A stretch of DNA of 64,000 nt, from the IMG/VR virus record IMGVR_UViG_3300023714_000001, one strand, 5' to 3'. Each line of letters opens with the position of its first letter. The stretch's first letter is position 1. The DNA comes from a virus (taxonomy: Duplodnaviria > Caudoviricetes). The position numbers were made by a program, and so were the translations under genes. Shown here piece after piece: positions 5,132 to 63,138 of the stretch. The notes under the pieces were generated by a model. The model was given only the letters and a program-made list of their open reading frames with translations. It searched no databases and was not told where the DNA came from.

Positions 5132-5399
5132 TTGTGTTTCCTCCCTTATTTTACCACAAAATCATTTCCTTGACACGTATGATACAATAGGTATTAGCTG
5201 AGAATATCGAAAAATGTTTGCCATCCTTCGCAAAACACTTATTTGCGCCCCGTAAGGAGCGTTCTCGTGGAGCGGCTTAACTCCGCGATACATGTAGGCT
5301 TGGTATGGGATAACAGTTCACAATCTTGAAAGAGACCTCGTGATCTGCCCGCCCGCCGAAGTTTTGTCTTGTTTATTCTATAGAAAGGACGGTACAACT

Positions 5400-7533: not shown

Positions 7534-7535
7534 AT

Positions 7536-7611
7536 TGGCTCCCCGAGCAGGACTCGAACCTGCGACATATGGATTAACAGTCCACCGTTCTACCGGCTGA
7601 ACTATCGGGGA
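7536..7611 (-). tRNA. tRNA-Asn(GUU)
   Basis: Canonical cloverleaf, loop CTGTTAA, G73, CCA. Confidence 0.95.
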
Positions 7612-7997
7612 AGAGTGTAGGCAGTTATGTCTTACCCAGGACCTATCCTATTTCCCTCCGGTAACTGACGGATTTTTGGTAACGGAGTGGCCGGATAGTG
7701 GCCGTTGCTTTTGTCGCCGACTGTCTGGGTCTAACAACAATATATCTAATCCCTTTACAGGGGATTATTCAGAGTTACTGCATTTGGTACAGAAAGGAGA
7801 AAAGATGATACCACGCTGCAGTGGGCGTTATCGTATATGTTTGGCCACTAACCAGACGTTAACCTGGTATTGGGCATAAGCGGGCGGCCGTCAATTTTAA
7901 TGTCCCTCGACCGCGAAGGACACCGCTTTCGCGGCACTACATGTAGTGTTTTGCCCGGACCGGTTGATCAGACCTGTTACCAGACAAATATTAGCTA

Positions 7998-8071
7998 AGC
8001 CAGTATCAGGACTCGAACCTGAGTCGCCGAGGTTACGTTTCGGTGCTCTATCCCCATTGAGCTATACCGGC
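7998..8071 (-). tRNA. degenerate tRNA (Thr-like body, aberrant anticodon loop)
   Basis: Acceptor, D and T arms intact; anticodon arm CCGA-AACGTAACC-TCGG lacks U33; no CCA. Confidence 0.6.
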
Positions 8072-8107
8072 ATAAATTGTAACCGCGCCGCTTGGGCGCA
8101 TTTTTAG

Positions 8108-8722
8108 TTGTGTTATTAACAAACACAAAACTACGGCAAAACATCAGGTTTCCCTGTACACAACTTGATGCTCTGCATTTATTCAGCCACGGAGAAGACA
8201 AGTCTGAGCAACGCGCCCGTCGACACGCGCTTCTTGCCTCTTTCTAGCTTCGAGAGGATTAAGACCTCCAACTTTCACCCGTCATTCAGAATTATAGATT
8301 GCTATAAAGCTACATACTTGATCTGTATCATTGCCTTGGGCTACTTATACGGCGACTGACAGTTATAGTCTCTTTTGAAGACATCACGGCAAAGTTCCAT
8401 CTTGATAAATACCTCGTGTACCTAAAGTTTATCACGCTTTAGTCTTTACTGGCGGCAGCGGAGCACACCACTTGTACTCATGCACTTATGAAACCCTGTC
8501 AGTTCCTGCTTTAACGCTCGGCATTGCATGCACATGACCTCAAGATACATGCGCTTACACTTTACACATCACCCTGTTCTTATTGCTAAGAAAGGACGTA
8601 CTCGCTGCAGGCATATCTACTGCAGTTTGTTAGTATCGATTACGGGGCCATTCTCGGACGCATGATATTGCGTTTTATAACCGAGGTATGCTTTGCCATA
8701 GTTTTCTGTTTGTTAATATTAA
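8108..8722 (-). ncRNA. large structured RNA, probably ROOL family
   Basis: About 600 nt non-coding between tRNAs, closed by a ~33-bp terminal helix (8112-8145 with 8688-8720); internal segments TCTGAATGACGGGTGAAAGTTGG and GCTCAGAC..GTGGCTGAATA match my recollection of ROOL; no covariance search run. Confidence 0.65.
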
Positions 8723-8724
8723 AT

Positions 8725-8800
8725 TGGCTCCCCAGGCAGGACTCGAACCTGCGACAAAACGGTTAACAGCCGTTTGCTCTACCAGCTGAGCTACTGGGGA
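8725..8800 (-). tRNA. tRNA-Asn(GUU), second copy
   Basis: Canonical cloverleaf, loop CTGTTAA, CCA. Confidence 0.95.
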
Positions 8801-9250: not shown

Positions 9251-9279
9251 ATTATACAGCTTCTTAAATAAAATGTCAA
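9251..9279 (-). promoter_or_regulatory. consensus sigma-A promoter at the head of the RNA-gene island
   Basis: TTGACA-17bp-TATAAT. Confidence 0.85.
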
Positions 9280-9315
9280 GAGAAAATATGTAAGAAGTTG
9301 AAAATTTTTTCCTTC

Positions 9316-9663
9316 TTACATATTTTCGGATAATCTGGGCTTTGAATACTTTTCCCAGATATACTCCAGCTCTTTTTGATAATCTCCGTTTGCCATACAG
9401 ACCCGTTCCTTTTCATACACCCTCGTTACCTTTTCGTTAAAGAGGTCTTCGTGCGTTGCTGTGATGCTTACATAATCGTTATCTCCTGTTGCCGGGTCAT
9501 ATCCTGGATGCCTATTGACTTTAAGAGTCACACGCCCGGTTGCTCCAAACCCATAAAATGTATAGCAGTCCCCTGCTTTTAAATCGCGATACGTTAATCC
9601 ATAAACGCGATTAACAGCAATATTGCGGCTGCGAACGAGGAGAGTTTCGTTAAAATATCGCAT
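9316..9663 (-). CDS. hypothetical protein
   Basis: MRYFNET start at 9663 after GGAG; the ORF-track extension runs through a regulatory hairpin. Confidence 0.6.
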   Translation of the reverse strand: MRYFNETLLVRSRNIAVNRVYGLTYRDLKAGDCYTFYGFGATGRVTLKVNRHPGYDPATGDNDYVSITATHEDLFNEKVTRVYEKERVCMANGDYQKELEYIWEKYSKPRLSENM

Positions 9664-9690
9664 AATGAGTACTCCATAGAAAAGACAAAG

Positions 9691-9719
9691 AAAACAAGAC
9701 AACTGCCCGCGAAGCGGGC
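9691..9719 (-). promoter_or_regulatory. hairpin + TTGTCTTGTTT box element (putative phage-RNAP promoter)
   Basis: Plus strand AAAACAAGACAA-CT-GCCCGC-GAA-GCGGGC; same architecture as seven copies at 45-51 kb. Confidence 0.6.
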
Positions 9720-9739: not shown

Positions 9740-10582
9740 TTACGCAGCATCGATGGCACTCTGCATGCGAGAGCGGAGATTGGATTGCTCTTTCTTGATG
9801 ATGCGATAGGTTGTTGATATAGAGGTATTGTATTTTTTAGCGAGGGCTCTTATAGAGTATTCTCCCGTATTGTAGTCGCTAAAAATCTCTGCGGCCTGAC
9901 TATGTGCTTCTGACACCTTGCGGGGGTAAGAAGCATTGTTAGTGTCAGATACAGTGTCATTCTTTTTAGGTTGAGTATTGTCCTGGATTACAGCCATACT
10001 GTTTTTCTTACGCTCAGAGCGGATAAATCCCATTTTCCCCAGAGCTTCTTCGGCATCCACAACTTTCTCCCCTGCTTCAATCAGGTTTGCAAGCGAATCG
10101 ATATTGTACTCGATTTCAGGTTTTAATGCGCTAGATAAAATTCCATTACGGAAAACAAACGGGCCGCGCGGATAATCCCCCTCAGCACCACTATCGATGA
10201 AAAATTCTTTATCTGCTACGACGCCTGCGGCCTCGCACTTCTTCCATAATGTAACGGGAACTTTTACTAATTCGCAGTCATTGCAGAGGATATCCTCAAG
10301 AGCATACCCTTCTTTTAATAAATCGTCTTTTGTTTTTGGGGTGTTGCTGCTTTTAGGCCAAAATAACATACTGTCCAGACCAAACTGAGCGCCAAGCCAC
10401 CTTGTCACGTCTGCCTTGTTAAGCATTACAGGTGCGAGATATTCCTCTGAAATATCATTTGCATCAAGATTGTCAGATTTGAGGTTATACATCCCCGTCG
10501 TTTCGTTATAAGCAGAAACGGTAAAAATGCGTCCATTGTTTACGCAATATACTTCGTCGCCCGGTTGATATACTATTTTCAT
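9740..10582 (-). CDS. protein with a C-terminal helix-turn-helix
   Basis: SIRALAKKYNTSISTTYRIIK HTH; ends IDAA. Confidence 0.65.
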   Translation of the reverse strand: MKIVYQPGDEVYCVNNGRIFTVSAYNETTGMYNLKSDNLDANDISEEYLAPVMLNKADVTRWLGAQFGLDSMLFWPKSSNTPKTKDDLLKEGYALEDILCNDCELVKVPVTLWKKCEAAGVVADKEFFIDSGAEGDYPRGPFVFRNGILSSALKPEIEYNIDSLANLIEAGEKVVDAEEALGKMGFIRSERKKNSMAVIQDNTQPKKNDTVSDTNNASYPRKVSEAHSQAAEIFSDYNTGEYSIRALAKKYNTSISTTYRIIKKEQSNLRSRMQSAIDAA

Positions 10583-10650
10583 TTAGGTCCTCCAAAAAAA
10601 ACTACTTAATTACTTCTTACACAAAAGTATAGTCCCTTCTTACTTTTAAG

Positions 10651-10812
10651 TCAAGACTTTTTCTTGGTGCCAAATATTGTTTGTAGAACCAATCTGCCGA
10701 TTTTTGCTTCCAGCCCCGTTTTTGATGTCGGAATGCCTGTTTTTCGGGCGAACTGTCGTTTAACATTTGTAATGCCAAGAAATGTTTTCCAGGAAAACCC
10801 ACCTTTATTCAT
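10651..10812 (-). CDS. small basic hypothetical protein
   Basis: MNKGGFSWKTFLGIT...; start overlaps the nrdG stop (ATGA). Confidence 0.6.
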   Translation of the reverse strand: MNKGGFSWKTFLGITNVKRQFARKTGIPTSKTGLEAKIGRLVLQTIFGTKKKS

Positions 10813-31904: not shown

Positions 31905-31955
31905 GGCGTTAACCTTTCTTTTTAGCTTACTTCTTACATGTTTTGCGGTAACTAC

Positions 31956-37684: not shown

Positions 37685-38420
37685 TTTTCTTTTTACTCCT
37701 TCTGTTAAATATCCGAAATATTCAGACTATATCCTAATATTTCGCGCGTATTATGTTAATACCAGATACTCCTATACTTCTCGTATTCCTTTTCGCGCAA
37801 TTCTTTTTTCATCTCCAACTTCTTTGCAAATTCTTTATAAGCTTGATTTCTCTCATAAACCCTACATATGTTCAGATACTCTCTATCTGGATTATGCCTA
37901 TACATATGATTAGGATGATTGCGCGCGAAAGTATCCTCTACGCGAATATTAAGCTCATTCAATTGTTCTTGTAGGGTGTTATACTTCTTAACAGTAGTCT
38001 CCTTTACAGACTTTTCCCTACATTTTTGTACGACAAAGGCTTCGAATGAATCAATCGTACTCTTAGTGATAGGATAGTTGTAGTAACGTATACAGGCGTC
38101 AAACATGGCCTTTATAAGAATATCCTCTTCTTCTGTTGCAAAAATCCTTCCGCCGGGCGCGGCAACATACTCCGGACAACATCTCCCCTTAAGTCCACAG
38201 GAGATAAAGTCAATCTTTACCGGAGCATTAGGGAAAGGATGTATGATATCCTTGGACTCTTTCTTAGGCGCAGCCTTATCTTCTTTCGGATTTTCTTCTA
38301 CACCTAATATCATCTTCAATATACCGGTCAACATATATCTGCCTTACACCTCACTTGTGGCTATTCTCTTCTTCACTGCTAAGATAAATGAAAGAATACC
38401 TTCTTACTTACTTCTTACAC

Positions 38421-38452
38421 ATAATATACACGTTAAAACCCCTCATTGTCAA
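38421..38452 (-). promoter_or_regulatory. sigma-A promoter heading the accessory operon
   Basis: TTGACA-18bp-TATATT upstream of 37756..38334. Confidence 0.55.
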
Positions 38453-39582
38453 GAAGGGTGTGTACAAAATTCTATAGAGCTTGTAATTAAGGAAAAATAT
38501 TTTCTGGTCTTAACGTGCTTTCCTTGTCTCTGGGCTACGCCCTATAGGGTTCCAACCTTGTATTTGTGGGCGGAGCAGCGTTGTATGTGCGTGGGGAGAG
38601 CTACTGCCTTGCGGAGCGACGCGTTTGTACATGTGCGCGATATGCGGCTCTATATGGCTTCATGTAGCTCTATGTAGCTTTGTATTTGTGGGGCGAGCCA
38701 GGTACAACTCCTAACATAAGGTAAAAAATTACCTATTTTGCAAAAACGAAGCCGGTTTTACTTTACGATTTTGCACACCTCGCATGTCATATGCGCAAGA
38801 AAGGCGCATAATCTCGTGTGAAAAGCGTGTACAACACGGCTTCCCAAATTGGCCGTTTTAAGCCATCTGTGAGCGTTTTCTTATCTTCGACGCCGTTTCG
38901 GAAAATTTTCTCTTCAAATGCACTGGAGAGGCCTTTTGAGGCCACTGAGGAGCATTTTTGAAGTCGTTTTCTCAGAGCTGTTTTTAGCTCTTCCTTTTCC
39001 TTTCTCTTCCCTTCTTACTTGCGTCTCATATAAGCATATCACTCATATATTGGCTTAGGGTTTTTGGTATGCCTCTCCGCAAATATATCTGTATATTTGA
39101 CCCTGGAGTACCACATCTCGTACTGCAGAATTTTGCAAAAGTGTAAACCTGCTTTGGGAAAAGTGTTATTTTCCTCTAGGTGGTAAATAAATAATTTTCC
39201 CTGACTTTGGCCTCCTGTATTATAGTTACAATACTATTGTATTTATACAGTATACCTAGTTTACACTCTTGAAAAATTGTGCGCTTCGCGCTGTGGGCTT
39301 TCCCCATGTTTATGCTTTAAGGGGAATACTCCTGCATGGGTATGTCAGGCATAAATAAGCTGCGCTCATAAGGTCTAAGTGATCTTATACAACTTATAGG
39401 GGATAATATATACGCTATTTTAAGGAGACCTGAATGGTCCCGTAAAATTTTGGCGCGCATATATGTTTGCCGGCTCGCTTACGCTCGCCGGCTTTTTGTA
39501 TCGTATATGGGCCTTTATTTACACATTATGTATTTCCCGTATGGGGATACGAGAAAATAATTTGCGGCCTTATACGTGCATT

Positions 39583-45140: not shown

Positions 45141-45337
45141 AAATAAAACACTCCTTTTTCTTATCCCGCTTTTTATCAGCATTTCGCTTCAGCGGGCTAC
45201 AAATGAACATTTCTGGACTACTGTCCGTTTTCTGGGGTTACGACGGTGAAAGGATAAAATCAGCTTAGCCCTGCTTACAGGAGACAGACGTAAGTTAGTT
45301 ATATAATCTGTATGTATGCGGGCGGAAAAATCCTCTC

Positions 45338-45370
45338 AAAATAAACAAGACAATCGTCTGCGAAGCAGAC
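45338..45370 (-). promoter_or_regulatory. hairpin + box element
   Basis: Plus strand AAAATAAACAAGACAA-TC-GTCTGC-GAA-GCAGAC. Confidence 0.65.
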
Positions 45371-45864
45371 AAGAGTTCTGTTCTTGGAAAGGGGATTTTT
45401 ACTTTGGGATTCAAGCCTTTCATAGCGCGCCGAAAAATGTAGGAGGCAACAAACATTCTTCGACGTACTATGAGGGGCTCAAAGCTCCTCTTTTTGCCAA
45501 GGTGGGGGTTTATGCGGCGGCCTCTGCCTCTTTGTCCACAAGATGCAGTAAGTCACCATAGGTGGTATGGGCGGTGAAGAAAATGGTCTCGCCGGCCTCG
45601 CTTTTAAGGCGGGCGGCTGTTACGACGTTTCCTTCAAGGGTGTCCCTGCGGATAATGTCAAGTTCACTGCCGCCACTTACGATATGGAAGCTATCGCAAA
45701 GAGTGGTCAGCCTCTTGGCCGGCAAGAACCGGTAGTAGCTTTCAGGGAATATGCTTTCCAGGTCATTCTGAAATACCATATGTCATTTCCTTTCTTTGAT
45801 AAAAAAATAGGCCCCTGACGCATAGGGGAAGCCCATAGGGGGTTGGGGAGCGTCAGGAGCCCAT

Positions 45865-45894
45865 AAAAACAAAGCAATATCGCCCGAAGGGCGA
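45865..45894 (-). promoter_or_regulatory. hairpin + variant box element
   Basis: Plus strand AAAAACAAAGCAA-TA-TCGCCC-GAA-GGGCGA. Confidence 0.55.
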
Positions 45895-46382
45895 AGTGGA
45901 ATTTGGACGAAGACGGCACTATCCAGACAAGAGGATAATTACTTGCGGCGTCTCCAGCCAAATATCGGTTATGCCGCTATTTTATACTCGGCATACTTTT
46001 CTTCCGCAAGGCGGTCATAGTCCCTGCGGGTCATCTTCCGCTTGGCGCGGTCACGAAGCATTCTTGCTTCGCGGCCTTCGCTGTAGATGCGGTTATGTTT
46101 ACGGATTTTTTCTGTGTTTGCATTTGTATTGAACATGATTAGCAACCTGCCTTTCTTAACGAATGTTTCTTGCGACGGCGTAGAATACAACCGCGCCGGT
46201 TGCAATCACGTCTACTGCCTGTTCTGCTACGGCCTTGGCTCCACCGACAAATTTCTGCCGGCAGGCCAAAACCTTCTCGTCACTTACTGCCTTGTCGTCT
46301 CCTAAATACCATTTGATAAATCTTTTCATATATATTCAGTCCCTTCATTTTCTAAAAATCAACAGCAAGCGACGCAAGTTTT

Positions 46383-46790
46383 TTACGCGGCTTCTTTGTC
46401 GATTACCGGCTCGGTAGTAAAACTGCCGTACGGTTTAATGTGTTCGTCTTTGACCGGAGTGCGGTACTTCTTGCATACTGTATCAAGCTCACCCTCCAGG
46501 ATGTTTACCGTGCTCTTGCAGAGTTCGAACAGACTCTTGCCAACGCCGATTACGTTCTTGATGAGACCAGCGTTGCGGCTGAAGATACCCAGCACATCGC
46601 AAAAGAAATTGTCGTTGCTGGCAATGGTGACAATAGCCTCGCCATCTACATGGTTCACGCTGAAGCGAATGGGGCCATCTACTTCATACTGGTCTTCACG
46701 GGCAAAGGTCTGGCCGAAGGATTCCATCAGCTTCTTTACGGCGAGCATTTCTTTAGCGTTAAAATACATTTTCATTTCCATGGTGTTCAT
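46383..46790 (-). CDS. hypothetical protein
   Basis: 135 aa, AAGGAG RBS; ends KEAA. Confidence 0.7.
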   Translation of the reverse strand: MNTMEMKMYFNAKEMLAVKKLMESFGQTFAREDQYEVDGPIRFSVNHVDGEAIVTIASNDNFFCDVLGIFSRNAGLIKNVIGVGKSLFELCKSTVNILEGELDTVCKKYRTPVKDEHIKPYGSFTTEPVIDKEAA

Positions 46791-46832
46791 TCTCCTTTTC
46801 CAAAACTACACAAATATTTTCGGGCAAAAAAA

Positions 46833-46982
46833 TTAAGCCGCTTTGCGGGCGGCTTTTTCTTCCAGCGTATTTGATTTTTGTGTCTTACGAGCTACAAGCT
46901 CCAAGGCTTTTCTGATTGCCTCAGCTCTTTCAAACCGTGTTCTCTGGTCGCCCCATTCAATCGAGATGTACGTCTTTTTCAT
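46833..46982 (-). CDS. 49-aa protein ending RKAA
   Basis: GAAAGGAG RBS; below the ORF-track size cut-off. Confidence 0.6.
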   Translation of the reverse strand: MKKTYISIEWGDQRTRFERAEAIRKALELVARKTQKSNTLEEKAARKAA

Positions 46983-47023
46983 GATAAACGCTCCTTTCAC
47001 AATGCGTCCAAAAAAATCATCTC

Positions 47024-47056
47024 AAAATAAACAAGACAATATCGCCCGGAGGGCGA
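47024..47056 (-). promoter_or_regulatory. hairpin + box element
   Basis: Plus strand AAAATAAACAAGACAA-TA-TCGCCC-GGA-GGGCGA. Confidence 0.65.
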
Positions 47057-48900
47057 AACGGCAGTCAGTGGGTATATCTCTTTCTGTTGTTGCGGGACTC
47101 TTTCTTGGGAAAGTAGGTTTCCTGAATACTTTCCCAAATGGCCGACAGAATTACCCAGCCAATGAGAATGACAAAATACAAGATACCTGCAAGAAAGAGT
47201 AAAACTATCCAGACTTCCATTTTTCAATTCCTCCTAAATCACGATGCGCGGCGTATAATGGCCGGGCGATGGATACGGTCAAAGATTGCATTGACAGCCA
47301 TGCGGGCGGCCTGCTGAACACTGTCGCACCCTACAGCTTTGCCATTAGCAAATACCGTGAATGGTTTGCCCTGCGGCTTATCTTCCTCATCGAAGTCCGA
47401 CACAATCTTGCCGTCTTTCATCAGCCAGCTATAAGCTGTTTCTCCGGTAAGTTTGTCCCTGTACTTCGTAGTGCAACCATGTCGCGATACTATCTCCCAG
47501 CGGTCAAAGGAGCCGGGAAGATAATGATGGATAACCAGCTCGTAGGCAAGCGTAGCAAACTTGCCGTAGGTTACGTCCCAAACAGGAATTATCATAACAT
47601 TATTACGGACGATTTTCAATGCATACTTTTTCATGGCATATCTCCCTTTCTATTTTACGCTACACCATTTTTCTCTGAATAAATGGGCTCTCCACTCCAC
47701 GTTTTCCAAAGATATGGATATTCCTCGCGGATTCTGGACATAGGCAGACTGATATGCCGGAAGTCTTTTTGGCGAACTCCCTTGTAGGCATACCATACAG
47801 TATGGTTAATACCGAAGTATTCCAGTAACCTGCTCACCTTTTCTGCCGTGCAAAGCGACATGTCTACACTGGCATACTCGCGGAGCCAGCCACTAAATTC
47901 CCTTGCCTCAAAGCTTATGGCAAGACTGCCCACTTCGGTTTCTGTAATATCGTTTCCTGCAAACATGGGTGCGCTGCATTCACTCATCACCATATTACAT
48001 ACTTCCAAAGCAAGCTCGGTGGAGCAGAGCCCTGTCATCGAGCCACGCTCTTCATTGAGCTTATTTCTTAATTCGTCTTTTGTCATTGTTTGTGCTCCTT
48101 TATTTTTTTGCACTGGCCGAGGGCCTTTTTTACCAGTTCTTCTTTGGTCACGCCTTCCTGATAAGGGAACACTCCCCTCCAACTGGCGGCGTAGTTTATA
48201 CAGTTCGGCTCTTCCTCGCGCTCCATAGGATGCACATCTTCTGCCGTTGCAAACACATATGGTCTTGAAAGCGAACCATCTTCTGCTTCCCAGATAGACA
48301 CGCAAATGTTTTGCGGCTGGAAGTTTTCACTTTCTGCAACCTCATGCTCTATAATGTGTAAACATGGTTTGTTTGACAGCACGGCATTAAAAGCATTTGC
48401 TTTTGCCACGAACACTTCTGCGTCCTTGCGGGCGGCAAATACCTGTTCGATATTCACTTCAGGAGTTCCGTCATAGTATATTTCAGATTCCACAACATAG
48501 ATAGTCATAGCTACTCTTCCTTTCTGTTATAGAGAAAAACAAACCTTCTCAAAAGCATGATAAAAAGAAAACACCGGGCAAACCACAAAATCAGCTTGCC
48601 CGGAGAAGAAAAATATCATGACTTTGAGAAGGCCCCAAACAATATGTTTGGGAACCTCCCCTTTTGTTTTTTACTATAGGAGGGAGCAACCCCTTGCCTT
48701 AGGACTGCTCACACATGACACCAGAATATTATTGAGTTCTAATATCTGATATCATCTGTGAGAAGCCATAACGACCTCTCCTGGTTTTGTGCAAGTGTCG
48801 AGAATGCTGGAACATTCTTCCTGTGCACATAACCGTTCCATCTGTAAGTGTCGGAAGCATTCCAGTACTTCTCCTACACGTCAGGAACAATCTCTCATAA

Positions 48901-48929
48901 AAAACAAGACAACCGTTCGCGGAGCGAAC
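48901..48929 (-). promoter_or_regulatory. hairpin + box element
   Basis: Plus strand AAAACAAGACAA-CC-GTTCGC-GGA-GCGAAC. Confidence 0.65.
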
Positions 48930-49272
48930 AGCTGTCTTTAACTCAGAAACCTCGATGTCAATCCAACTGATATGCTGTGCCGTATCCATAGAAGACGATA
49001 TTGAACATACCGTCGAATAGGCTGGGGTCAATGCGATAACCTTCCCACGACTCCGTTATGTTATCCTGGAAAGACTCGGTCTTAAGGTCAAAACCGAAGT
49101 ATTGTTTTGCGTTGCTGTCGTTGGGGTCGATACAGGAGCTCCATTCATTGCCGCCATCTTCCTCCTCGACAATATATCCGATTTTATCAACGCCAATCTC
49201 TCTAATCTTCTTGTTAAGCTCTTTTACGTCAAACATTTTAGTCTCCTCCTGCAGAAAACAAAAAACATATTC

Positions 49273-49308
49273 AAAATAAACAAGACAACCTATCGCCCGG
49301 AGGGCGAT
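49273..49308 (-). promoter_or_regulatory. hairpin + box element
   Basis: Plus strand AAAATAAACAAGACAA-CCT-ATCGCCC-GGA-GGGCGAT. Confidence 0.65.
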
Positions 49309-49935
49309 GAGGCACTAACTGGATGGCTCAATGTAAACGAGCGCAACAAAAGCCGCCCGCAATATCTTATGCGGCAACTTTCTCAATGGCACAATTCTTT
49401 ACCGCACCAGCGATGATGCGGCACTTGTTTGCAGGTGAAGATGCAAGATACTCGGCAAGGTCAAACTGGGTAACAACTTTGTACTTGCGCTTCGATGCCG
49501 TAGTAAATACAGCCCCGGCGCTCAGAACAGATTCACTATCCAGTTGGGGTTTCATTCCCTCCTCGGCCGAAGGCCCCGTTGCCACCTTGGGCACCTCGAC
49601 GACATCTGCCTTTACCATGGCCATGGCTACCTGCTGAGGGGTAACGCCCTTAACATTTTGGGCGCGCATTTTCCTTCCGTCTACCCACTCTGCTTTTAAC
49701 AGACTAAGTACACCAGAAGTAATACACCCTCTTATAGCTAAGGGCACTACAAATGCCTCAGAATTAGCCATGGCATTATGCAGCATTAATGCACACAATC
49801 CAAACAGAGCTTTTCTTTCATGTGCAGTCATTTTATTAAGTAACATATTTATACACATCTCCCTTTTTAAGCAATAAAAAATAAGCCCCAGCCATACAGA
49901 CTGGAGCTTACATGTTATTTTTAGTTATTCGTAAG

Positions 49936-49963
49936 AAACAAGACAATCGTCTGCGGAGCAGAC
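49936..49963 (-). promoter_or_regulatory. hairpin + box element
   Basis: Plus strand AAACAAGACAA-TC-GTCTGC-GGA-GCAGAC. Confidence 0.65.
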
Positions 49964-49997
49964 AATGGTAGTAGCCATATCACAACGGACGCATATT

Positions 49998-50222
49998 TTA
50001 CGCCGCGTAATCCATGACAATATTGCTGTCTATTGTCTTTTTAGCTTCTTCAATAAGAGCCTTTACCCGCTTCAACACAGGAGACTTATACCATACTTCT
50101 CCACACTGTGGGCATACTGCTCCAGGAACATTCTTTATAGATATCAGATAACCATTATAATGCGCATAGTATACAGTGAGCTTATCACCATTTATGCTGC
50201 CGCCGCAAGTTGCACAAGTCAT
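49998..50222 (-). CDS. YgiT/MqsA-type zinc-finger protein (putative antitoxin)
   Basis: CATCGG..IKNVPGAVCPQCGE; ends DYAA. Confidence 0.8.
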   Translation of the reverse strand: MTCATCGGSINGDKLTVYYAHYNGYLISIKNVPGAVCPQCGEVWYKSPVLKRVKALIEEAKKTIDSNIVMDYAA

Positions 50223-50223
50223 G

Positions 50224-50547
50224 TTATTTCCTCCTCGTCTTAAAGTCATCTTCCCATTTGTCGCTGCTGGGAATATATGCCGTTATAAGCGATATTTCAT
50301 CATTGTCACCATCTAACCCAACAACCACATGGATAGGGCGCCCATTCATATGTATATAAAACATCAGACATGATGGCAGTGGCGTACTCCATGGACGTTC
50401 CTCTATAACTTCACCATACAATATGGTTTGTTCTACTTCGTCTATGGTTATATTTCTCTCGTCCAGTCGTTCACTGGCGTGGCGAGAAATCCTTACGCCA
50501 TATTGAAGACACAGCTTTCTTATTTTTGATATGTTCACAACTCTCAC
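50224..50547 (-). CDS. DUF4258-family protein (putative type II toxin)
   Basis: SRHASERLDERNI..GEVIE..RPIHVV..ITAYIP..W; directly upstream of the YgiT-type gene. Confidence 0.8.
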   Translation of the reverse strand: MRVVNISKIRKLCLQYGVRISRHASERLDERNITIDEVEQTILYGEVIEERPWSTPLPSCLMFYIHMNGRPIHVVVGLDGDNDEISLITAYIPSSDKWEDDFKTRRK

Positions 50548-50582
50548 CTACTCTAATTATAACAGAGAGAAACAAAGTTCTC

Positions 50583-50614
50583 AAGATAAACAAGACAATG
50601 CCTGCGAAGCAGGC
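50583..50614 (-). promoter_or_regulatory. hairpin + box element
   Basis: Plus strand AAGATAAACAAGACAA-T-GCCTGC-GAA-GCAGGC; no credible minus-strand gene within about 1 kb upstream. Confidence 0.65.
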
Positions 50615-51011
50615 TCGGAGGAAGACATGGTGTAACCCCATACTCCCTCCTGACCGGCTCGATGTGGCAGCGAAAAGACGCCACTTTCCGGCGGTCATCG
50701 CCGGATATCGAAGAAGACAAGTGTATCGAGCCCCTGCCGTATCTGGCGGCCAGGAGCCTGACCAGATACCGCGCATGAAGCCCGAAGGGCGGCTTCGGCG
50801 AGCGAGCAATGTCTCGGACACACGCCATCTCTTTTTGCCCGAAGACAAGATGCAGACCACACCTTTGTTGGTGCGATACCGTTGCGGGCGGCGTGGGACC
50901 GAGACGAGCGAAGCGAGCCGAAGGCCTTTATTCTTATGCTTTATTTTATTGACTTTATCAACTTTATATGTTATACTATATGTAAATAAATGAGTTAGGA
51001 GTGGATGCACG

Positions 51012-51257
51012 ATGATATGTTTAACCGATTCTGAATACGAGGTAGTTAAGCCACTGGGACGGCGGCTTCATTCATTGGTTGCCCACTCCGGCTTAAATGC
51101 AGCAGACATTCGCAGTCAACGCCCAGATATTGTTGCAATGGAAAAGGACCTGAACAATATACTGGGGCCAATAACCGGGCGCAGCTACGATATCATCGAA
51201 TGGTTTACCTATACAACCCCTGGAAGAACCGAGCTGAATAAACTACTCAATTCTTAA
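51012..51257 (+). CDS. hypothetical protein
   Basis: AGGAG RBS, upstream TTGACT..TACTAT promoter-like sequence; counter-oriented. Confidence 0.6.
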   Translation: MICLTDSEYEVVKPLGRRLHSLVAHSGLNAADIRSQRPDIVAMEKDLNNILGPITGRSYDIIEWFTYTTPGRTELNKLLNS

Positions 51258-51320: not shown

Positions 51321-51578
51321 ATGAAGTTAACTGATGCACAGCGCGGGGCAATCACCTCAGCAGTAACTGATTATATTGATTATTGTGTAAATGAAGATAC
51401 GGATTCACTGGATATCAAGGACAGCAAACTGTCTTCATTGGCGAGCGGTCAACTCTACAACGTCCTTTGCTTGATATATAATACTGGTGCTCCTGATCAG
51501 ACTATCCAGAATAAGCTGGATAGTAAAGACTGGGGCGCTCCAGAGGAAGTAATTCAATTTATCGAGCTTACTTTATGA
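51321..51578 (+). CDS. hypothetical protein
   Basis: AAGGGG RBS. Confidence 0.6.
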   Translation: MKLTDAQRGAITSAVTDYIDYCVNEDTDSLDIKDSKLSSLASGQLYNVLCLIYNTGAPDQTIQNKLDSKDWGAPEEVIQFIELTL

Positions 51579-54049: not shown

Positions 54050-55918
54050 TTACTTTTCCGCATCGACAACTACAACAATGCCATCATAGCCTTCAAGATG
54101 CTCAGCAACCGGCTTAACACCAGTAGCTTCTTTTACCATCTTGTCATAACCCTTCTCGAGTTTGATACGGAGTTCATTGGTGAGCCATTCCGGTACATCG
54201 CTGGTATAAATGGTCATCAGCTTCTCACTATTAAGCGTCATCTGCATATAGTCCGTGGTTACAACTTTCGTCGTAGCCTTAACTGTATGCGGGCGGAGCT
54301 GAATCTGCATACCAACGACGTCTTTTGTGGACACTTTAGCTGCGCGGGCAGCACAAGTATCGAGCATCGTGCCTTCGCCATCCATCTGGTCATCCTTGTC
54401 AAACAGGATGCAGAAAGACTTGAGCGTAAAGCCCTGGTCAGCACGCATACCCATACCGCAAGTATGAGAAGACAGGCGGGTGGCTGCATCAACAAGCATC
54501 GTACCCGTTACCTTCTCGCCCTCACGGATGGCAAATTCACCATGAGTGGCACTATAGAAGATTTTATTGAATTTCTCAATATTCTCTTCCGTGGATGCAT
54601 CGAAGAACATCATTGTGTCCTGACGCTTCTGAGAGGTAGAATAGATATTGCATCTATCTGCATCAAGCGTCATAATTATATCTTCCTGCTTAACCCACTC
54701 TTTCTTGATGGCCACAACTTCATGCTCCTGCATGCGGTATGCCGGATCGTATCCGCTTAAGAGAGCGTAGCAATTACGCAGTTCAACGAGCACAGATACG
54801 CCATCACCATAAACAGGGACATATTCATCCTTGTCCATATCGTGGGTAACACCAATATTCTTGGTGATGTAAATCTTGCCTCCTTCCTCTAATCCATCAA
54901 TCTTTCCAAGAAGGTAACGCAAGCAACGAGCTGCCTTCTCTTGGATTTTCTTGCCGGACGTCTCATCTGCCCGAACAAGATCAGAAAAGTCAACCGTAGC
55001 TACTTTATCCGTAGCAAGACGTTCACCAGAGAACTGGTTACGGCCAATAGAGTTACCAAGAACAACACCTTTCTTGGCATACGGAGCCGTGAATGCAGTC
55101 ACTGGAGCCGCCGTAATATCGACCACGCACTGGCAGCCAATATTATTGTTGGCCTGTACAAAAGTCAGGCTCTGCATCTGTACAGTAGCCATGCCTTTAT
55201 CAGCCTTCTTCATAAGGGTTCTACGGACTTTATTGTCCAGCTTGTGGCTGCCATGTTTCAGGATAGAGCCAAGCTGAGTGCGAAGACTCGGCTTTTCAGC
55301 AGCCTGAAGGATAACAGCACGATAGTTGCCTTCAACTACCTTCTTAGAAATCCCCTTACGGCCGAGAATCTCATCCAGTTCGGACAAATCCTTAATGTCC
55401 GTCTTGTGAGCGACAATCTTGGCAGCGTATACCGCACCAATGCCGTTAAGCTTCATGAGCTCAGAGACAACACCGCAATTAATGTTGATTTCCTTCTGTT
55501 CAGAAGCTGCCGCTACTTTGAGTACAATGCCGAGCTTCTTACGCTCGACAAGGCTCATAATACGGTCACGGGAGATACCGGCTGCCACCATATCGAGCGG
55601 CGTACGGAATTTCTTTGCCTGTTTATCTTTCCAATAACGGCAAAGACGATTCACCTCACGGTGCGTAAACACCGAGCACAGAACCATCGGGCTCTGTTCA
55701 TTGATATTAACCATTGGGCGGCCAGTACGAATGTACCAGTTATGGCTGAGAACCTTCACGGATTCCCAGGAAATACCAATGTTTGCCAGTGCTTTGAACG
55801 TAGTAGCACTTACACCACGTTCACTGCAGAACGCAAAGATTTTCTCAGCGTCCTTATGGCAAATACCTGCCAGTTCCAGTTCAGAAACGGATGCAAACAG
55901 TAAATTTTCTCTAGTCAT
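54050..55918 (-). CDS. HhH (ComEA-like) repeats fused to the first-barrel half of a two-barrel RNA polymerase
   Basis: ININCGVVSELMKLNGIGAVYAAKIV HhH; C-terminal QMDGEG..GMQIQLRPHTVKA resembles the DGxG..QxR..K motifs of YonO/QDE-1 polymerases; start MTREN after GAGGAGG. Confidence 0.6.
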   Translation of the reverse strand: MTRENLLFASVSELELAGICHKDAEKIFAFCSERGVSATTFKALANIGISWESVKVLSHNWYIRTGRPMVNINEQSPMVLCSVFTHREVNRLCRYWKDKQAKKFRTPLDMVAAGISRDRIMSLVERKKLGIVLKVAAASEQKEININCGVVSELMKLNGIGAVYAAKIVAHKTDIKDLSELDEILGRKGISKKVVEGNYRAVILQAAEKPSLRTQLGSILKHGSHKLDNKVRRTLMKKADKGMATVQMQSLTFVQANNNIGCQCVVDITAAPVTAFTAPYAKKGVVLGNSIGRNQFSGERLATDKVATVDFSDLVRADETSGKKIQEKAARCLRYLLGKIDGLEEGGKIYITKNIGVTHDMDKDEYVPVYGDGVSVLVELRNCYALLSGYDPAYRMQEHEVVAIKKEWVKQEDIIMTLDADRCNIYSTSQKRQDTMMFFDASTEENIEKFNKIFYSATHGEFAIREGEKVTGTMLVDAATRLSSHTCGMGMRADQGFTLKSFCILFDKDDQMDGEGTMLDTCAARAAKVSTKDVVGMQIQLRPHTVKATTKVVTTDYMQMTLNSEKLMTIYTSDVPEWLTNELRIKLEKGYDKMVKEATGVKPVAEHLEGYDGIVVVVDAEK

Positions 55919-56012
55919 GATAAAATCCTCCTCGGGCTCGACGGCCCTTTTCTCTAAAAAAACAAAATTTGACAGACTATTTATCGAGCGCCGCCTGTCA
56001 GGGCGCAGAAAA

Positions 56013-59000
56013 TTAAAAGTCGATATCAACATCGATGGTTTCCGTGCCATCAAAGATAAGAGCAGAGGATTCCTTAACGGATTCTTCCGGCAGAGCATCA
56101 TATTCTGCATTCTTCTGTTCCACTTCTGTCAGCACAACAACGGCACGATTGCAATTGCTGTCTGCATAAACAACGGAAACTGCACCGTTCAAACCTTCAT
56201 AGAAAGAGCGAACAGTAGCATCGTAGCTGTACTGATCACGATTCTTACGGACGTATGTATCTACATCCATATCAATCGTCAGAGCCTGGCTACGAACAGC
56301 AGCCTCCTTATTGTAATGCTTGCCACCCTTGCTGCCCTTTACATAAAGGCTGCCAAGAACTTCAGTACCTTCTCTCATGCCAAGGCGGGTATACTTACCG
56401 TCCTTAACATTTGAAAGAAGAATACGATGACCAACTTTAGAAGACATGGCATCAACGATAGCTTTGTTAATAGCAACTTGCTCGTCATTAATAATCCACT
56501 GTTCTTCTGCGGTTTCACCATCCCATTCCGGATTCGGCATCCAAACAGATTTAAGGTCAAGCTCAAATGCTACCTGGGTACGATCCACTTCGGGGATGCT
56601 GATAAAGTCCGTCATTGGGCGGACAATTGCCGGGGAGTCATCACGCATAGCAATCTGATACATGCCATCCAGAACATTTAAAGACACATAAAGGTCTTCA
56701 ATTTTCTTCATTTTGGCTGTATAGACTTCGCCTTCTTTTACGATAATGTTCTGCCCCTCAGTCAGAGACTTCAGAGCTTCTACATTATTGTAACGAGCAT
56801 TAATGAACTCCACGGCTTCATTATTGTCACTCATCTGAATAGCAGCATAAGCCGTCTCCTCTTTGAGAAGCTTGCTCATATTGCTGCCTGCAGAAGTCGT
56901 GATGTCTTCGCCTCCTGCAAGATAACCAACGAGGTCGTCAGGAGAGACCTTGCTGTTATCACGAGCCACCATCCAACGAATGGTATTGGAGATAGCGTCG
57001 AAAGCATCGTCATACTTCTCGTGCAGAGCTTTGCGGATTGCATCACTCTTAGAGTTGCTGACGTCGCCATACTCATCGGCATTTGCGGCAAGCATTGCTT
57101 TGCGGTCTTCACGATAGACTGTATTGATTGCGCCACCCATGCTGATTGCTACCTGCAGGCGGTTTTCAATACGCTGGTCTGCAATGTGCATGATGGCTAC
57201 GTCGTAAGCATTTTCACGACGAGCCTTATACTCTGCAGAATTAACTGCTGCTTTGTAGCGGGCAATTAATTCATTGAGCTTTTCCATGGACTTTTCAATT
57301 GCATACCGGCGATAGCTGGCGAAGAAGTCGTTGAACACAACAACCTTACGATCGTTCTGCCCCTTTCCTTCTGCCGGCCAGAAAAGCTGAATTGGTTCTT
57401 CAGCCATTACACCGCGGAAGCCTTCACGGCTGATTTCATTGCCGTTCATGTCAAGGAGAATAACTTTTTCGTCCTTACGGAGCAGGTCATCTTCCTTGAG
57501 TTCTGTTTTAACATTAGCTTCCGGGTCTTTATGGAATGCTGCCCAGTCGATAACGAAACGCGCACCGAACTTCAGCGGCGTAACCGTCATCGTTGCCTTA
57601 AGAATGGCTACAAAGTCCGTATAAACCTTGTAGAACTTCTTTTCAGCATCTATAGTGCATTCCTGAGTGTGACGAATAAGAACGTCAAAGTCCTTGATGA
57701 TTTCGAGTAGCGTATTCCACTGCTCTTCTGTTGTACCTTCAAAGCGAGTCATATGAACCGCTTTCTCAAATGCATGATAGGCATCAAGAGTTTCGCCGTT
57801 CTCATAGGTCTTTGGAGCCGTGCTTGCGGTTTCGCGGCCGTATTCATCTTCGCCCCAAGTAAGCGGGGTATGATACTTGCCGTCGCCAGCATCAGCTTCC
57901 GTACCTGCTTCCCATACTGTAGAGAAGCAGGAGATATAGAGTGCTTTTACCTCATCACTCCAATCGATAGCACAAAGCCCCTGAATAAGGACACGGCCAG
58001 CGTTAGTCACAGGACCAACCTTCTCATTATGATTCTGGTTGATCATGTGGAAATTGGTGGAGTACATGCCACCGTCAATTTCGTAACGCTCGCCCTTTTC
58101 TTCAGGCTTAGTCGGTACGATATCAACAGCCAGCGGTTTAAAACCATACCCCATAAGGAACCAGGGGATATCCTTCTGGCCTGCACGATGCAGAATTACA
58201 GAAGTCTTATCCCCATCACGGTCCGAACCGGCCAGCACGCTGCCGATAGCTGCCAGGTCAGCAGGCATCTCGATAATACCTTCCTTGATATTGGCATACT
58301 GTTCAGCAGCGCAGATGGCCTCCTCTTCCGTGAGGTAGCCACGCTCAACGAGGTCCATCAGAGCTTCCTCGATTTCCTCGTCATCCATAAAATGAACGAG
58401 TACGGTTTCGCGGGTGCCAACAGACGGATACTTCATGAGCGCACCGTAACGATCTTCTCTGGCGGCATTGATACCGTCAAAGAAGCGAGTAGCACGAGGA
58501 TCGACAACATTCATGACGTTGCCATTGATACCCGTAACGCCAACTTTCAGTGCTTCTTCAACACCGAAACGGCTCTTAATGAGCTCATACACCGGGTCAA
58601 TCGAAATCATGCTTGTGTGGCCGTCAAGATGATAACGGTCGAGCTGAACATGATTGGAGAGCGTACGGGCGATGTCGTTTGTGGCACCCTTAATGAGCTG
58701 CGGCCACATGTTGAGCGCACCGCTGTTCATACCCATTAAGAGCGAAGAAGTATAACCAGCATCAACTTCTTCAAAGCCACGATAACCATCGCGGCAACGG
58801 CCATCGAGGTCAGACACCTCGTCCACCGTATGGTCGATAGCAGTTTTGATGACTTCATCCAGGTCGCTAAGCACCTGTTCTGCATCGGCGCCATTTTTAA
58901 TAGCGTCGTTTGCGCAGCGGAACAACTTCATCCACATCTGTGCGGATGAGTACACGTTCTTATCTTCATCCTCTGCATGAGGAATCATAAGAACATTCAT

Positions 59001-59228
59001 TCCGGTTGGTACAGTGACATCAAAGATGTCTTTCCAGAAATTACGGTCACCCACAATTTCCGGCAGTTCAATACCGTTAGCAATGGCTTTAAAAGCATTG
59101 CCTTTTACGTTAGCTGCTGCATTAACATGTATAGCTTTTTCTGCAGCTTTTGCTTTTTCTTCGGCATTGATTTTCTCAACAATAGCCTTACGATCAACGG
59201 TTACGTTTGCGATAGTCTGAGTCTTCAT
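56013..59228 (-). CDS. two-barrel RNA polymerase catalytic half (YonO/QDE-1-like)
   Basis: LAGSDRDGDK (DxDGD) preceded by LMKYPS (K/RxP); 1071 aa from MKTQ after AGGAGG. Confidence 0.72.
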   Translation of the reverse strand: MKTQTIANVTVDRKAIVEKINAEEKAKAAEKAIHVNAAANVKGNAFKAIANGIELPEIVGDRNFWKDIFDVTVPTGMNVLMIPHAEDEDKNVYSSAQMWMKLFRCANDAIKNGADAEQVLSDLDEVIKTAIDHTVDEVSDLDGRCRDGYRGFEEVDAGYTSSLLMGMNSGALNMWPQLIKGATNDIARTLSNHVQLDRYHLDGHTSMISIDPVYELIKSRFGVEEALKVGVTGINGNVMNVVDPRATRFFDGINAAREDRYGALMKYPSVGTRETVLVHFMDDEEIEEALMDLVERGYLTEEEAICAAEQYANIKEGIIEMPADLAAIGSVLAGSDRDGDKTSVILHRAGQKDIPWFLMGYGFKPLAVDIVPTKPEEKGERYEIDGGMYSTNFHMINQNHNEKVGPVTNAGRVLIQGLCAIDWSDEVKALYISCFSTVWEAGTEADAGDGKYHTPLTWGEDEYGRETASTAPKTYENGETLDAYHAFEKAVHMTRFEGTTEEQWNTLLEIIKDFDVLIRHTQECTIDAEKKFYKVYTDFVAILKATMTVTPLKFGARFVIDWAAFHKDPEANVKTELKEDDLLRKDEKVILLDMNGNEISREGFRGVMAEEPIQLFWPAEGKGQNDRKVVVFNDFFASYRRYAIEKSMEKLNELIARYKAAVNSAEYKARRENAYDVAIMHIADQRIENRLQVAISMGGAINTVYREDRKAMLAANADEYGDVSNSKSDAIRKALHEKYDDAFDAISNTIRWMVARDNSKVSPDDLVGYLAGGEDITTSAGSNMSKLLKEETAYAAIQMSDNNEAVEFINARYNNVEALKSLTEGQNIIVKEGEVYTAKMKKIEDLYVSLNVLDGMYQIAMRDDSPAIVRPMTDFISIPEVDRTQVAFELDLKSVWMPNPEWDGETAEEQWIINDEQVAINKAIVDAMSSKVGHRILLSNVKDGKYTRLGMREGTEVLGSLYVKGSKGGKHYNKEAAVRSQALTIDMDVDTYVRKNRDQYSYDATVRSFYEGLNGAVSVVYADSNCNRAVVVLTEVEQKNAEYDALPEESVKESSALIFDGTETIDVDIDF

Positions 59229-59319
59229 GATATTTTTCCTCCTTTGTGGCTCGACGGCCACTCTGCAAAAAAAACAAAAATTGCCCAGTTTAAGGTCGTG
59301 TGGCAGGACCAAAACAAAA

Positions 59320-59850
59320 TTAAAACGGCAAATCTCCCCATTCCGTGATGGGGTTGAGGTCAAATACTTCGGCCTCTATATTCTCATCTATATCTCTGTG
59401 GGAAACATAGGAGTCTTCCCCCATACCGTAGCAGTTATAAGCGAACTCCTTAACCTTATCTTTGGGATAAGTTTCCAGGAGCTTTACCAGGAGCATTGTG
59501 GAAATAACGTGTTCCTCCACTAAGAGGTCAGCGCCATCAACAAAGTCTGCAGCGCCAATTTCCTCCTGCATACGGCCAAACAGCTTTAGTGCCGCATCAC
59601 CCTCTGCACGCTCGGCTTCCTCCAGAAGCCCAACGGTGTTGTTGAACTCCAGAGTAACATCCTCGTCCGGCTCATCGCCGAACGGGTTGGTGAAGCAGGC
59701 CTTATCCTTGCCTACCACCAAGAACCTGCCCTTTTCATAGGCGCCCTTCCCGCCAAACATAAGTGCTCCATTCGGAAGTACTTCATAATGAGCAAATGCT
59801 TCACCAAGCAGGATAACAACAGCGGCCTTAATAAGATTCAGTTTCTTCAT
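59320..59850 (-). CDS. acidic hypothetical protein ending WGDLPF
   Basis: 176 aa; leader GCTGTCCTATCGGCATATACGGGGAGAAGGAG overlaps the RBS. Confidence 0.7.
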   Translation of the reverse strand: MKKLNLIKAAVVILLGEAFAHYEVLPNGALMFGGKGAYEKGRFLVVGKDKACFTNPFGDEPDEDVTLEFNNTVGLLEEAERAEGDAALKLFGRMQEEIGAADFVDGADLLVEEHVISTMLLVKLLETYPKDKVKEFAYNCYGMGEDSYVSHRDIDENIEAEVFDLNPITEWGDLPF

Positions 59851-62420: not shown

Positions 62421-63138
62421 AAATCATCCCAACCCGCCCGCTATTTTTCTAACAGACGGTCTTCCATTATACCCCTCTAAAACGCAAAATATGAGGGGTG
62501 TTTTATTTTTGACGGCACTTTACCAGTTAAACACCTTTTCGTCGCGCTACGTTAAATCTATGGGGCCTATAGAGAAGATTTCAGGTAAAGTTCTGAATGC
62601 AGACAAGCGGCGCGGGCCGGATCTAAAAATTTTAGAGCTTAAGGATCTTGTGCGTGTATCTTTCCTATAGAGAAGAACAATAATAAAGTATTATGATTAA
62701 CCTTCAACATAAGAACGTAAGAAGAACATTGTAGGTAGGTTATATATGGGACATATAGATATATACCACGGACAATATCTTACTGCAAACATGATAGTAT
62801 CTGTTATATAGGGATACATTGTATTTGCGGTAGGTAAGAAGACGATAGCTCTATAGGGGACAATATGTAAGAAGTCACCATTATGGACAGTTTTTGTAGG
62901 GGCACATTGTTGCGCATGAGGACGTAGAACATCTTTCGGCGGCACGGGGCCGGGCATAGAAGCTGCTGACAGGGGAAGTTGAGGGGGCGGCGACCCCCTC
63001 AGTTGCTGCTCTAATAGCAGCGGCTTTAATAGCATTTAAGAAGTTCTCATTGACATGTACGAGCAGGTCAGAGTAAAATAGACAATACAAAAAGCCCCGC
63101 ACCGGCAAAACCGTGCGAGGCTCAGGAGGAATTAAATA

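Follow-up and report, generated by a model that had tools for sequence, protein, structure and literature searches.

Strand-specific hairpin-plus-box elements at early cassette junctions of an uncultured phage and their resemblance to N4-type promoters

How does a phage start transcription of a row of small genes that stand so close together that no room is left for conventional promoters? The question is raised by a stretch of 64,000 nucleotides (hereafter, the window) from the virus record IMGVR_UViG_3300023714_000001 (Duplodnaviria; Caudoviricetes), which covers bases 3911-67910 of an uncultured-phage contig of 211,158 bp with 43.7% G+C. A first-pass annotation of the window described eight mini-hairpins with a conserved box, most of them between positions 45338 and 50614, and proposed that they are promoters similar to those of the virion RNA polymerase of phage N4, the alternatives being terminators or processing sites. 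We analyzed these elements, numbered 1 to 8 in the direction of minus-strand transcription, in this genome (G000) and in its relatives. Three lineages were compared, G000/L043, G001/L037 and L045; another relative, G003, is the record IMGVR_UViG_3300023714_000002. Unless indicated otherwise, positions are those of the window.

The 11-nt box AAACAAGACAA occurs in exactly eight copies in the window and in none elsewhere in the 211-kb genome; 2.1 copies are expected by chance at one mismatch or fewer, and eight were reached in 0 of 100 shuffles. Seven copies are found on the plus strand (9692, 45343, 47029, 48902, 49278, 49936 and 50588) and one on the minus strand (5364). Each of the seven plus-strand boxes is followed, after 1-3 nt, by a perfect GC-rich stem of 6-7 bp with a GAA or GGA loop closed by a C-G pair. 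An eighth hairpin of the same kind (45880-45894) is accompanied by a decayed box, CAAAGCAATA. The stems and loops reported in the first-pass annotation were recovered as described, perfectly paired, at all eight hairpins; its sites are right, with start coordinates up to 5 nt too low, and the copy that it placed at 45865 is the one with the decayed box. Perfect 6-bp C-GRA-G hairpins (R, purine) number eight in the plus-strand sense and zero in the opposite sense throughout the genome, compared to means of 0.40 and 0.17 in Markov simulations, and all eight belong to this family. The stem bases next to the loop form GC-GRA-GC at five loci and CC-GRA-GG at the other three. In the mRNA (minus-strand) sense, the order is a C-TYC-G triloop hairpin (Y, pyrimidine), a mostly purine spacer of 1-3 nt, TTGTCTTGTTT, and then N-Y-Y-W-T-G-A, and the elements are placed between co-directional small minus-strand genes. 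The hairpin-plus-box family is real, strand-specific and far above chance. An Rfam search produced a single sub-threshold match (VrrA, E 0.94), and a scan of viral contigs for the box and loop gave, among the matches listed, almost only single, apparently chance ones.

The elements occupy syntenic sites across the three lineages. The 11-nt box is identical in 20 of 20 unique copies, with flanks diverged to ~70-80% identity, and its conservation runs on to an invariant G at box position 17 (extended form in the mRNA sense, TTGTCTTGTTTNYYWTG). Covariation is evident in the stems: each of the 66 pair cells is Watson-Crick, five of the six pairs change on both sides, one-sided (G.U) changes are absent, and this pattern was matched by none of 500 shuffles. 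For example, element 5 and its G001 ortholog are separated by a compensatory double change (TCGCCC/GGGCGA versus TCGCGC/GCGCGA), the G001 loop being ttc. Loops alternate between ttc and tcc only, i.e., TYC in every copy, which is G-R-A on the template strand; the GAA or GGA template loops and the stems of 6-7 bp are common to the eight loci of this genome and to every copy in the relatives. An extra copy in G003 precedes a clpP-clpX pair by 115 nt, within an arm that the genome studied here does not share; its stem is 7 bp long, its loop is TTC and its box is identical. A second TTC-triloop hairpin is located 3 nt further upstream of that copy.

The position of the elements is also informative at the level of gene content. 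Both indels that separate the G000 and G001 arrays run from just past one box to just past the next: the first, from 50580 to ~49930, takes with it an MqsA-like gene, and the second, from 49270 to 48792, a gene for 92 aa. L045 has a HicB-like gene in place of the G000 array cassette. The elements mark junctions where early anti-defence-like cassettes get swapped between related phages, whatever the mechanism. The array cassette gene at 49998-50249 (minus strand) encodes an MqsA-antitoxin-like protein (E 6e-7), and the L045 gene at 9903-10142 a HicB-antitoxin-like one; both are possible anti-defence genes.

The resemblance to N4, suggested in the first-pass annotation, held when promoters P1-P3 were read from the N4 genome itself. 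In the sense orientation, these are GTTGC ttc GCAAC TTAT G (P1), AAGAAGC tcc GCTTCTT TT G (P2) and AAGCTGC tcc GCAGCTT TT G (P3). The GC-TYC-GC heptamer is identical at five of the eight loci studied here, and in both systems a template-strand hairpin has a variable stem of 5-7 bp and a 3-nt G-R-A loop closed by C-G. Past the N4 hairpins comes a T-rich spacer, then a G at 11 nt from the loop centre; the first box G of the elements is 11, 12 or 14 nt away. P2 and P3 are located 18-76 nt past an upstream stop codon, and all three N4 promoters 13-52 nt before a start codon; similarly to N4, LUZ7 and LIT1, the elements lie just past an upstream stop and shortly before small early genes. According to published work, the determinants of N4 promoters are a loop of three bases with a purine in the middle, a GC-rich heptamer centred at -11, stem bases that can vary and an A-tract that serves as a ruler (PMC4496689); LUZ7 transcription starts at a G that is 13-14 nt away from the centre of the hairpin (PMC9163698). 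As judged from sequence, all of these determinants appear to be present, or nearly so, in the elements.

We consider the chances about even that the elements are N4-type, phage-specific hairpin promoters at early cassette junctions, possibly composite with a weak stop function. In the proposed mechanism, the perfect inverted repeat of 6-7 bp would be extruded or exposed as single strands, and a very stable C-GRA-G mini-hairpin would fold on the template (plus) strand. A phage-encoded RNA polymerase or a cofactor would then bind this hairpin together with the invariant A-rich template box, and RNA would start at one of two bases, namely the first G of the box, at the N4- and LUZ7-like distance of 11-14 nt from the loop centre, or the invariant G at box position 17. 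Activity of N4-type promoters depends on supercoil-driven extrusion and on single-stranded DNA-binding protein. Five downstream genes begin 28-90 nt past the box, and the elements stand upstream of genes with no room for another promoter. Because the element, in the mRNA sense, places a T-rich tract after a GC hairpin, it may double as a weak terminator or insulator of the upstream cassette, a composite like the PeSLs of T4-type phages.

Which enzyme could read such promoters? The candidates are a split QDE-1/RDR-type polymerase encoded just upstream and a putative virion polymerase. The large piece of the former (56013..59363, minus strand; 1116 aa) carries AGSDxDGD and KYPxMGTRE motifs and is encoded 5 kb upstream of the elements; the second piece (54050..56110, minus strand) contains HhH repeats. 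The large piece has 37 distant homologs in which both motifs are invariant, AGSDxDGD having been read across 28 homologs, and searches of Pfam, PHROGs, PDB sequences and PDB profiles gave no identification of the protein. Its AlphaFold model (pLDDT 74, pTM 0.73) matches RDR2 (Z 14.8, 449 residues, root-mean-square deviation 5.8) and QDE-1 (Z 13.7, 449 residues, root-mean-square deviation 4.4), followed by phi14:2 gp66 (Z 9.5) and cellular beta' barrels (Z ~7); the top Foldseek matches are all QDE-1 or RDR2, with an E-value of only 1.7e-3. The model therefore identifies the 1116-aa protein as the catalytic piece of a QDE-1/RDR-type two-barrel RNA polymerase, in agreement with the two-barrel enzyme named in the first-pass annotation. 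Here, two genes encode the polymerase, and the one for the catalytic (DxDGD) piece precedes the other. All distant homologs (1200-2200 aa) are single chains in which the HhH-containing part is joined to the N-terminus of the catalytic part, so the gene order of the two pieces is permuted in this phage.

Single-chain two-barrel RNA polymerases, such as YonO, QDE-1 and the crAss-like virion enzyme, are widespread in phages and are related to the polymerases of eukaryotic RNA interference; we know of no account of how they locate start sites. To our knowledge, T7-like polymerases are the only class of enzymes shown to read hairpins of this kind. A Pfam RNA_pol search of the genome found no match, the controls being silent too, and comparison of three giant open reading frames (ORFs) with N4 gp50 in PDB, Pfam and PHROGs also found none, which leaves room for a very diverged homolog. 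Both gp66 and QDE-1 prefer single-stranded DNA templates, and no common motif was found upstream of the early transcripts made by gp66 of phi14:2 (bioRxiv 10.1101/2020.03.07.982082). By analogy, initiation at an extruded hairpin by a QDE-1/gp66-type enzyme would be mechanistically plausible. That hairpin promoters are read by a two-barrel polymerase of the QDE-1/RDR/gp66 type, either the split neighbour or a virion enzyme, is a tentative proposal to which we give somewhat less than an even chance.

Several observations weigh against initiation at the elements. The equivalent of N4 position -8 is C, not G, in three of the eight stems, and the hairpin-to-box spacing varies by 3 nt (spacers of 1-3 nt, stems of 6 or 7 bp, 11-14 nt from the loop centre to the first box G), compared to the fixed ruler of N4. 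The above searches of the genome and of the giant ORFs detected no T7-like polymerase, and no element is found ahead of the two-barrel polymerase operon itself. The first-pass annotation had put forward co-occurrence of motif and polymerase in related phages as a check; the motif was not found in four contigs (L047, L048, L049 and L166) that are short and encode polymerase homologs with only 26-38% identity. Motif matches in Moorella phage MTATph1 are at the control level only. In addition, a terminator scan flags the elements, which in the mRNA sense combine a GC hairpin with a T-rich tract; several hairpins closely follow upstream stop codons (8, 20, 28 and 34 nt); and the copy at 9692 stands at the end of a single-gene unit served by a sigma70-type promoter of its own.

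The last three of these observations belong to the strongest rival, in which the elements are terminators only: an RNA hairpin and a U-rich box would stop the host or phage polymerase, and downstream genes would be expressed by read-through. The RNA hairpins are indeed stable and GC-rich, as intrinsic terminators require (~-10 to -12 kcal/mol for the 6-bp stems), and the box of copy 48902 pairs with sequence upstream of it into a 15-bp stem followed by GTTTTTT. The tails, however, are not those of terminators. T-tail scores of the elements are 0.63-2.5 (median ~1.1), compared to 0.88 +/- 0.81 for random sequence, and canonical terminators of this genome, six of which lie in this region on the same strand, have long T runs and scores of mostly 2.4-4.5. 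The near-random scores are explained by the bases directly after the stem, which are mostly not T: most copies have 1-3 non-T bases there, the exceptions being the TA spacers of copies 47029 and 45870, and the U-tract that directly follows the stem of an intrinsic terminator is missing. An exact 11-nt tail and conservation that extends ~20 nt past the stem, through position 17 of the box, exceed what intrinsic termination needs. Neither the loop restricted to TYC nor the lack of G.U pairs in the stems, compared to their abundance in the canonical terminators of this genome, is explained. Moreover, distal cassettes would be silent if the elements were only terminators, because seven stops would stand in series with no promoter space after them. 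The family is also absent at the ends of late operons, and element 1 comes after opposite-strand genes and a conserved non-coding stretch of ~400 nt. Genuine N4 promoters, given their positions relative to stop and start codons, look as terminator-like in the sense orientation as the elements do. We regard a purely terminating role as unlikely.

Less probable still, and in our opinion quite improbable, is a role in RNA processing or stability, in which a phage or host endoribonuclease would cut polycistronic early RNA in the box and leave a protective 3' hairpin. RNase III sites between the early genes of T7 are the model for this explanation. Within the co-directional array, the elements do recur after every one to four genes, a stable hairpin does stand beside a conserved U-rich box that is single-stranded, and a protein that reads the RNA loop could account for the fixed UYC. 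Conversely, the stems contain no G.U pairs, though nearby RNA structures have many; no promoter for a long precursor was found upstream of element 1, and no dedicated RNase was identified in the window; and the match to the N4 DNA-hairpin heptamer would be a coincidence. A non-transcriptional DNA element, i.e., a recombination site for cassette exchange or a single-strand priming signal for replication, would suit the indels that end at elements, the perfect inverted repeats and the stable template-strand mini-hairpin, but is highly improbable, given that no recombinase or integrase is associated with the array, that homologous recombination at any repeated regulatory signal yields the same indels (cf. 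PeSLs; PMC4122927), that strict co-orientation with genes 28-90 nt before start codons points to gene expression, and that priming sites would not cluster in 5 kb.

Several other readings of the same letters were rejected. No conserved sigma70-type -10 element was found across the elements, and the box does not fit a -35 element (TTGAGA or TTGTCT): only copy 50588 has a good -35/-10 pair, which its G001 ortholog lacks. A Bacteroidetes-type -7 motif does not fit, and strong Shine-Dalgarno sites together with TTGACA/TATAAT promoters suggest a Firmicute-like host. A nut-like boxA/boxB arrangement on the plus strand would lie antisense to all genes.

The individual elements, all on the minus strand, are as follows. 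Element 1 (50581..50614) consists of the hairpin 50614-50600 (GCCTGC ttc GCAGGC), a 1-nt spacer and the box 50598-50588, with the invariant G at 50582, and it heads the cassette array. The first-pass annotation remarked that this copy has no nearby upstream gene to terminate, which is essentially correct: the nearest co-directional upstream gene ends ~965 nt away (51579), with opposite-strand ORFs between. The distance from the box to the next ATG (50249) is 338 nt; a weak GTG is located at 50547, 40 nt away. The segment 50615-51578 holds one or two small plus-strand genes (51012-51257 and 51321-51578) that break the minus-strand arm, and a good plus-strand promoter is seen at 50949-50977. The non-coding part, 50615-51011, is 92-94% identical to relatives, compared to ~75% for neighbouring genes.

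Element 2 (49929..49963) has the hairpin 49963-49949 (GTCTGC tcc GCAGAC) and the box 49946-49936; it begins 34 nt past the stop codon of the MqsA-like gene, 77 nt separate its box from the ATG at 49858, and both the element and its cassette are missing from G001 and L045. Element 3 (49271..49308) has a 7-bp hairpin, 49308-49292 (ATCGCCC tcc GGGCGAT), a 3-nt spacer and the box 49288-49278, with 58 nt from the upstream stop to the hairpin and 41 nt from the box to the ATG at 49236. The hairpin of element 4 (48895..48929), 48929-48915 (GTTCGC tcc GCGAAC), follows the upstream stop by 28 nt, and its box (48912-48902) is ~390 nt from the next start, with structured RNA between. This conserved RNA (48530-48900, minus strand) starts directly after element 4 and precedes the gene at 48508; of its 89 predicted pairs, 12 show compensatory changes across lineages, and G.U pairs make up ~17%. 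A terminator-like hairpin (48603-48574) is nested within its 19-bp long-range stem, and the structure may therefore represent a regulatory leader or a non-coding RNA. Its 5' part also contains a possible ORF of ~48 aa in G000 and L043.

Element 5 (47022..47056), with the hairpin 47056-47042 (TCGCCC tcc GGGCGA) and the box 47039-47029, lies 8 nt past the upstream stop and 28-46 nt ahead of the next start. Element 6 (45863..45894) has the hairpin 45894-45880 (TCGCCC ttc GGGCGA) and the box TTGCTTTGTTT, which is decayed in this genome, L043 and L045 and intact in the G001 ortholog; the upstream stop is 74 nt from the hairpin, and the box (45870) is 90 nt from the next start. The hairpin of element 7 (45336..45370), 45370-45356 (GTCTGC ttc GCAGAC), is 139 nt from the upstream stop, and its box (45353-45343) is 160 nt from the start of a gene for 326 aa (45182-44202), which is closed by a canonical terminator at 44185-44153. 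Element 8 (9685..9719) is located away from the array, with the hairpin 9719-9705 (GCCCGC ttc GCGGGC) and the box 9702-9692, 20 nt past the stop of a gene for a 280-aa helix-turn-helix (HTH)/Mor-like protein and 28 nt ahead of the ATG (9663) of a conserved gene for 115 aa; it is syntenic in the relatives G001, G002 and G003. The 280-aa protein (9740-10582, minus strand) is a candidate transcription regulator, with a C-terminal HTH, weak matches to Mor activators and resolvase HTH domains, and a promoter of its own that bears an operator. Downstream of element 8, at 1830-2226 and 7365-8800 (minus strand), the phage encodes a tmRNA (tag DEAEYRLAA) and five tRNAs.

The minus-strand copy of AAACAAGACAA is a box without a hairpin: TTGTCTTGTTT reads on the plus strand at 5364..5374, 25 nt before a 32-aa hydrophobic ORF. 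The first-pass annotation was right that this copy exists and precedes a plus-strand ORF; it lends no support to the family, because a single chance 11-mer is not improbable (about 0.1) in two-strand sequence totalling 422 kb and the orthologous site in G001 lacks it. The copy is probably a chance match outside the family. A trans-acting antisense RNA from the inverted box was rejected for the same lack of conservation. The ORF itself (5400-5498, plus strand; MELHFILRPKILRELRWLIVVLVVAIVVAKHF), with a Shine-Dalgarno site and a strongly hydrophobic product, resembles a small membrane peptide or a type I toxin.

The genes around the elements are on the minus strand, with higher codon scores there and GGAGG-type ribosome-binding sites ahead; plus-strand genes in 45-51 kb were rejected on codon scores and Shine-Dalgarno sites. 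The standard genetic code fits the window, and recoded stop codons were rejected, as no alternative code gives meaningful lengthening of ORFs. A giant structural protein of 2919 aa matches, at 28-33% identity, a baseplate-hub/'endolysin' family of Moorella phage MTATph1 and of the Bacillus phage 0305phi8-36 group, and canonical TTGACA-N17-TATAAT promoters are present in the genome; these two features point to a Firmicute-type jumbo myovirus, not a crAss-like phage. Searches of isolated phages with the region (blastn) and with the polymerase and a 3081-aa ORF (tblastn) found no match, and close relatives of the neighbouring proteins (81-94% identity) come from a few large metagenomic contigs. 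G003 has the polymerase and cassette region in common with G001. Its positions 74000-93000 form an arm with gyrB, thyX, clpP-clpX and Bro-N that has no detectable homology in this genome, and G003 is therefore either a mosaic relative or a chimeric assembly.

Two other signal classes were observed. An operator-like repeat, (T)GTAAGAAG(T), is found in 1-3 copies, oriented with the genes, on canonical TTGACA-N17-TATAAT promoters at 9270-9330, 10612-10660, 31929-31940, 38410-38460, 62831-62875 and 65168 of the window and, beyond it, at genome positions 168923-168956 and 171903-171952; the pattern suggests a class of promoters for the host polymerase that a phage repressor or activator controls. 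The other motif, TTATNNAAAACTCGGAGG, takes in the ribosome-binding site and occurs singly or in divergent clusters before structural genes, at window-relative positions beyond the window (66701, 67547, 101480-101810, 119385 and 151420-151775); it is a candidate late promoter.

It remains to compare the elements with known systems. Intrinsic (Rho-independent) terminators share with them a GC-rich hairpin and a T-rich tract on the coding strand near an upstream stop; here, in contrast, the tail is weak, interrupted and invariant, it is set off by 1-3 non-T bases in most copies, and the triloop is fixed. The late promoters of phage AR9 (PMC5449584) are reported to be recognised on the template strand by a two-barrel multisubunit polymerase without a sigma factor, a precedent for such recognition by a phage enzyme; those promoters are uracil-dependent, with no hairpin, and the enzyme is five-subunit and beta/beta'-like.

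A parallel in genome organization is provided by the PeSLs of T4-type phages, which are composite terminator/early-promoter motifs (PMC2839356, PMC4122927). In both cases, the small non-essential ORFs of a hyperplastic early region are separated by repeats of a stem-loop with a conserved signal, and it is at this motif that indels between close relatives end. Since this indel behaviour is that described for PeSLs (PMC4122927), the element may also insulate the upstream cassette. The promoters of PeSLs, however, are sigma70 early promoters for the host polymerase, unlike the elements, which have no conserved -10, a fixed loop and strictly Watson-Crick stems.

Bacillus phage 0305phi8-36, a distant relative (28% identity in the baseplate hub), resembles this phage in architecture and layout. 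Its gene for a polymerase similar to RNA-dependent RNA polymerases (RdRP; orf99) is followed by small monocistronic genes on the same strand, and at 13 junctions a hairpin, whose outer stem covaries around CGTTCGCACG, precedes a T-rich box ending in GT(A). Presumably these are the 21-bp phage-specific promoter candidates described by Hardies et al. 2007 (PMC2147016), where the promoter role is a proposal. The same paper calls the motif copy after orf81 a terminator, so the ambiguity between promoter and terminator is also found in the literature. The hairpins differ in their CGTTCGCACG core and 6-nt loop; no TYC-triloop hairpin was found in the 84 kb of the right arm that were scanned, and the motif sequence is not shared between the two phages. 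The 0305phi8-36 motif also precedes its polymerase gene, which is not the case here, and the two polymerases gave no match at the tblastn level.

The elements also differ from the N4 promoters. In the elements, an invariant 17-nt box follows the hairpin, compared to only AAAA and +1C on the N4 template; 7-8 copies serve as cassette junctions, compared to three promoters in N4; and the N4 reader, gp50 (Schitoviridae), is a T7-like single-subunit virion RNA polymerase, whereas the polymerase recognised here is of the QDE-1/RDR two-barrel type. The family is a short, sharply defined candidate signal (a hairpin of 15-17 nt and a box of 17 nt) that comes with natural variants, and it is adjoined by a clonable two-piece polymerase, so that the promoter question can be tested directly in vitro. 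Should the elements prove to be promoters, hairpin promoters would be no peculiarity of N4-like phages and would represent a general solution for polymerases that lack a sigma factor and require pre-melted DNA. If the reader of the elements is the two-barrel enzyme, they would be the first defined promoter type of the QDE-1/RDR/gp66 class, for which none was found in the crAss-like phi14:2, and the N4 hairpin-promoter mechanism would have been re-invented convergently by an unrelated class of polymerases.

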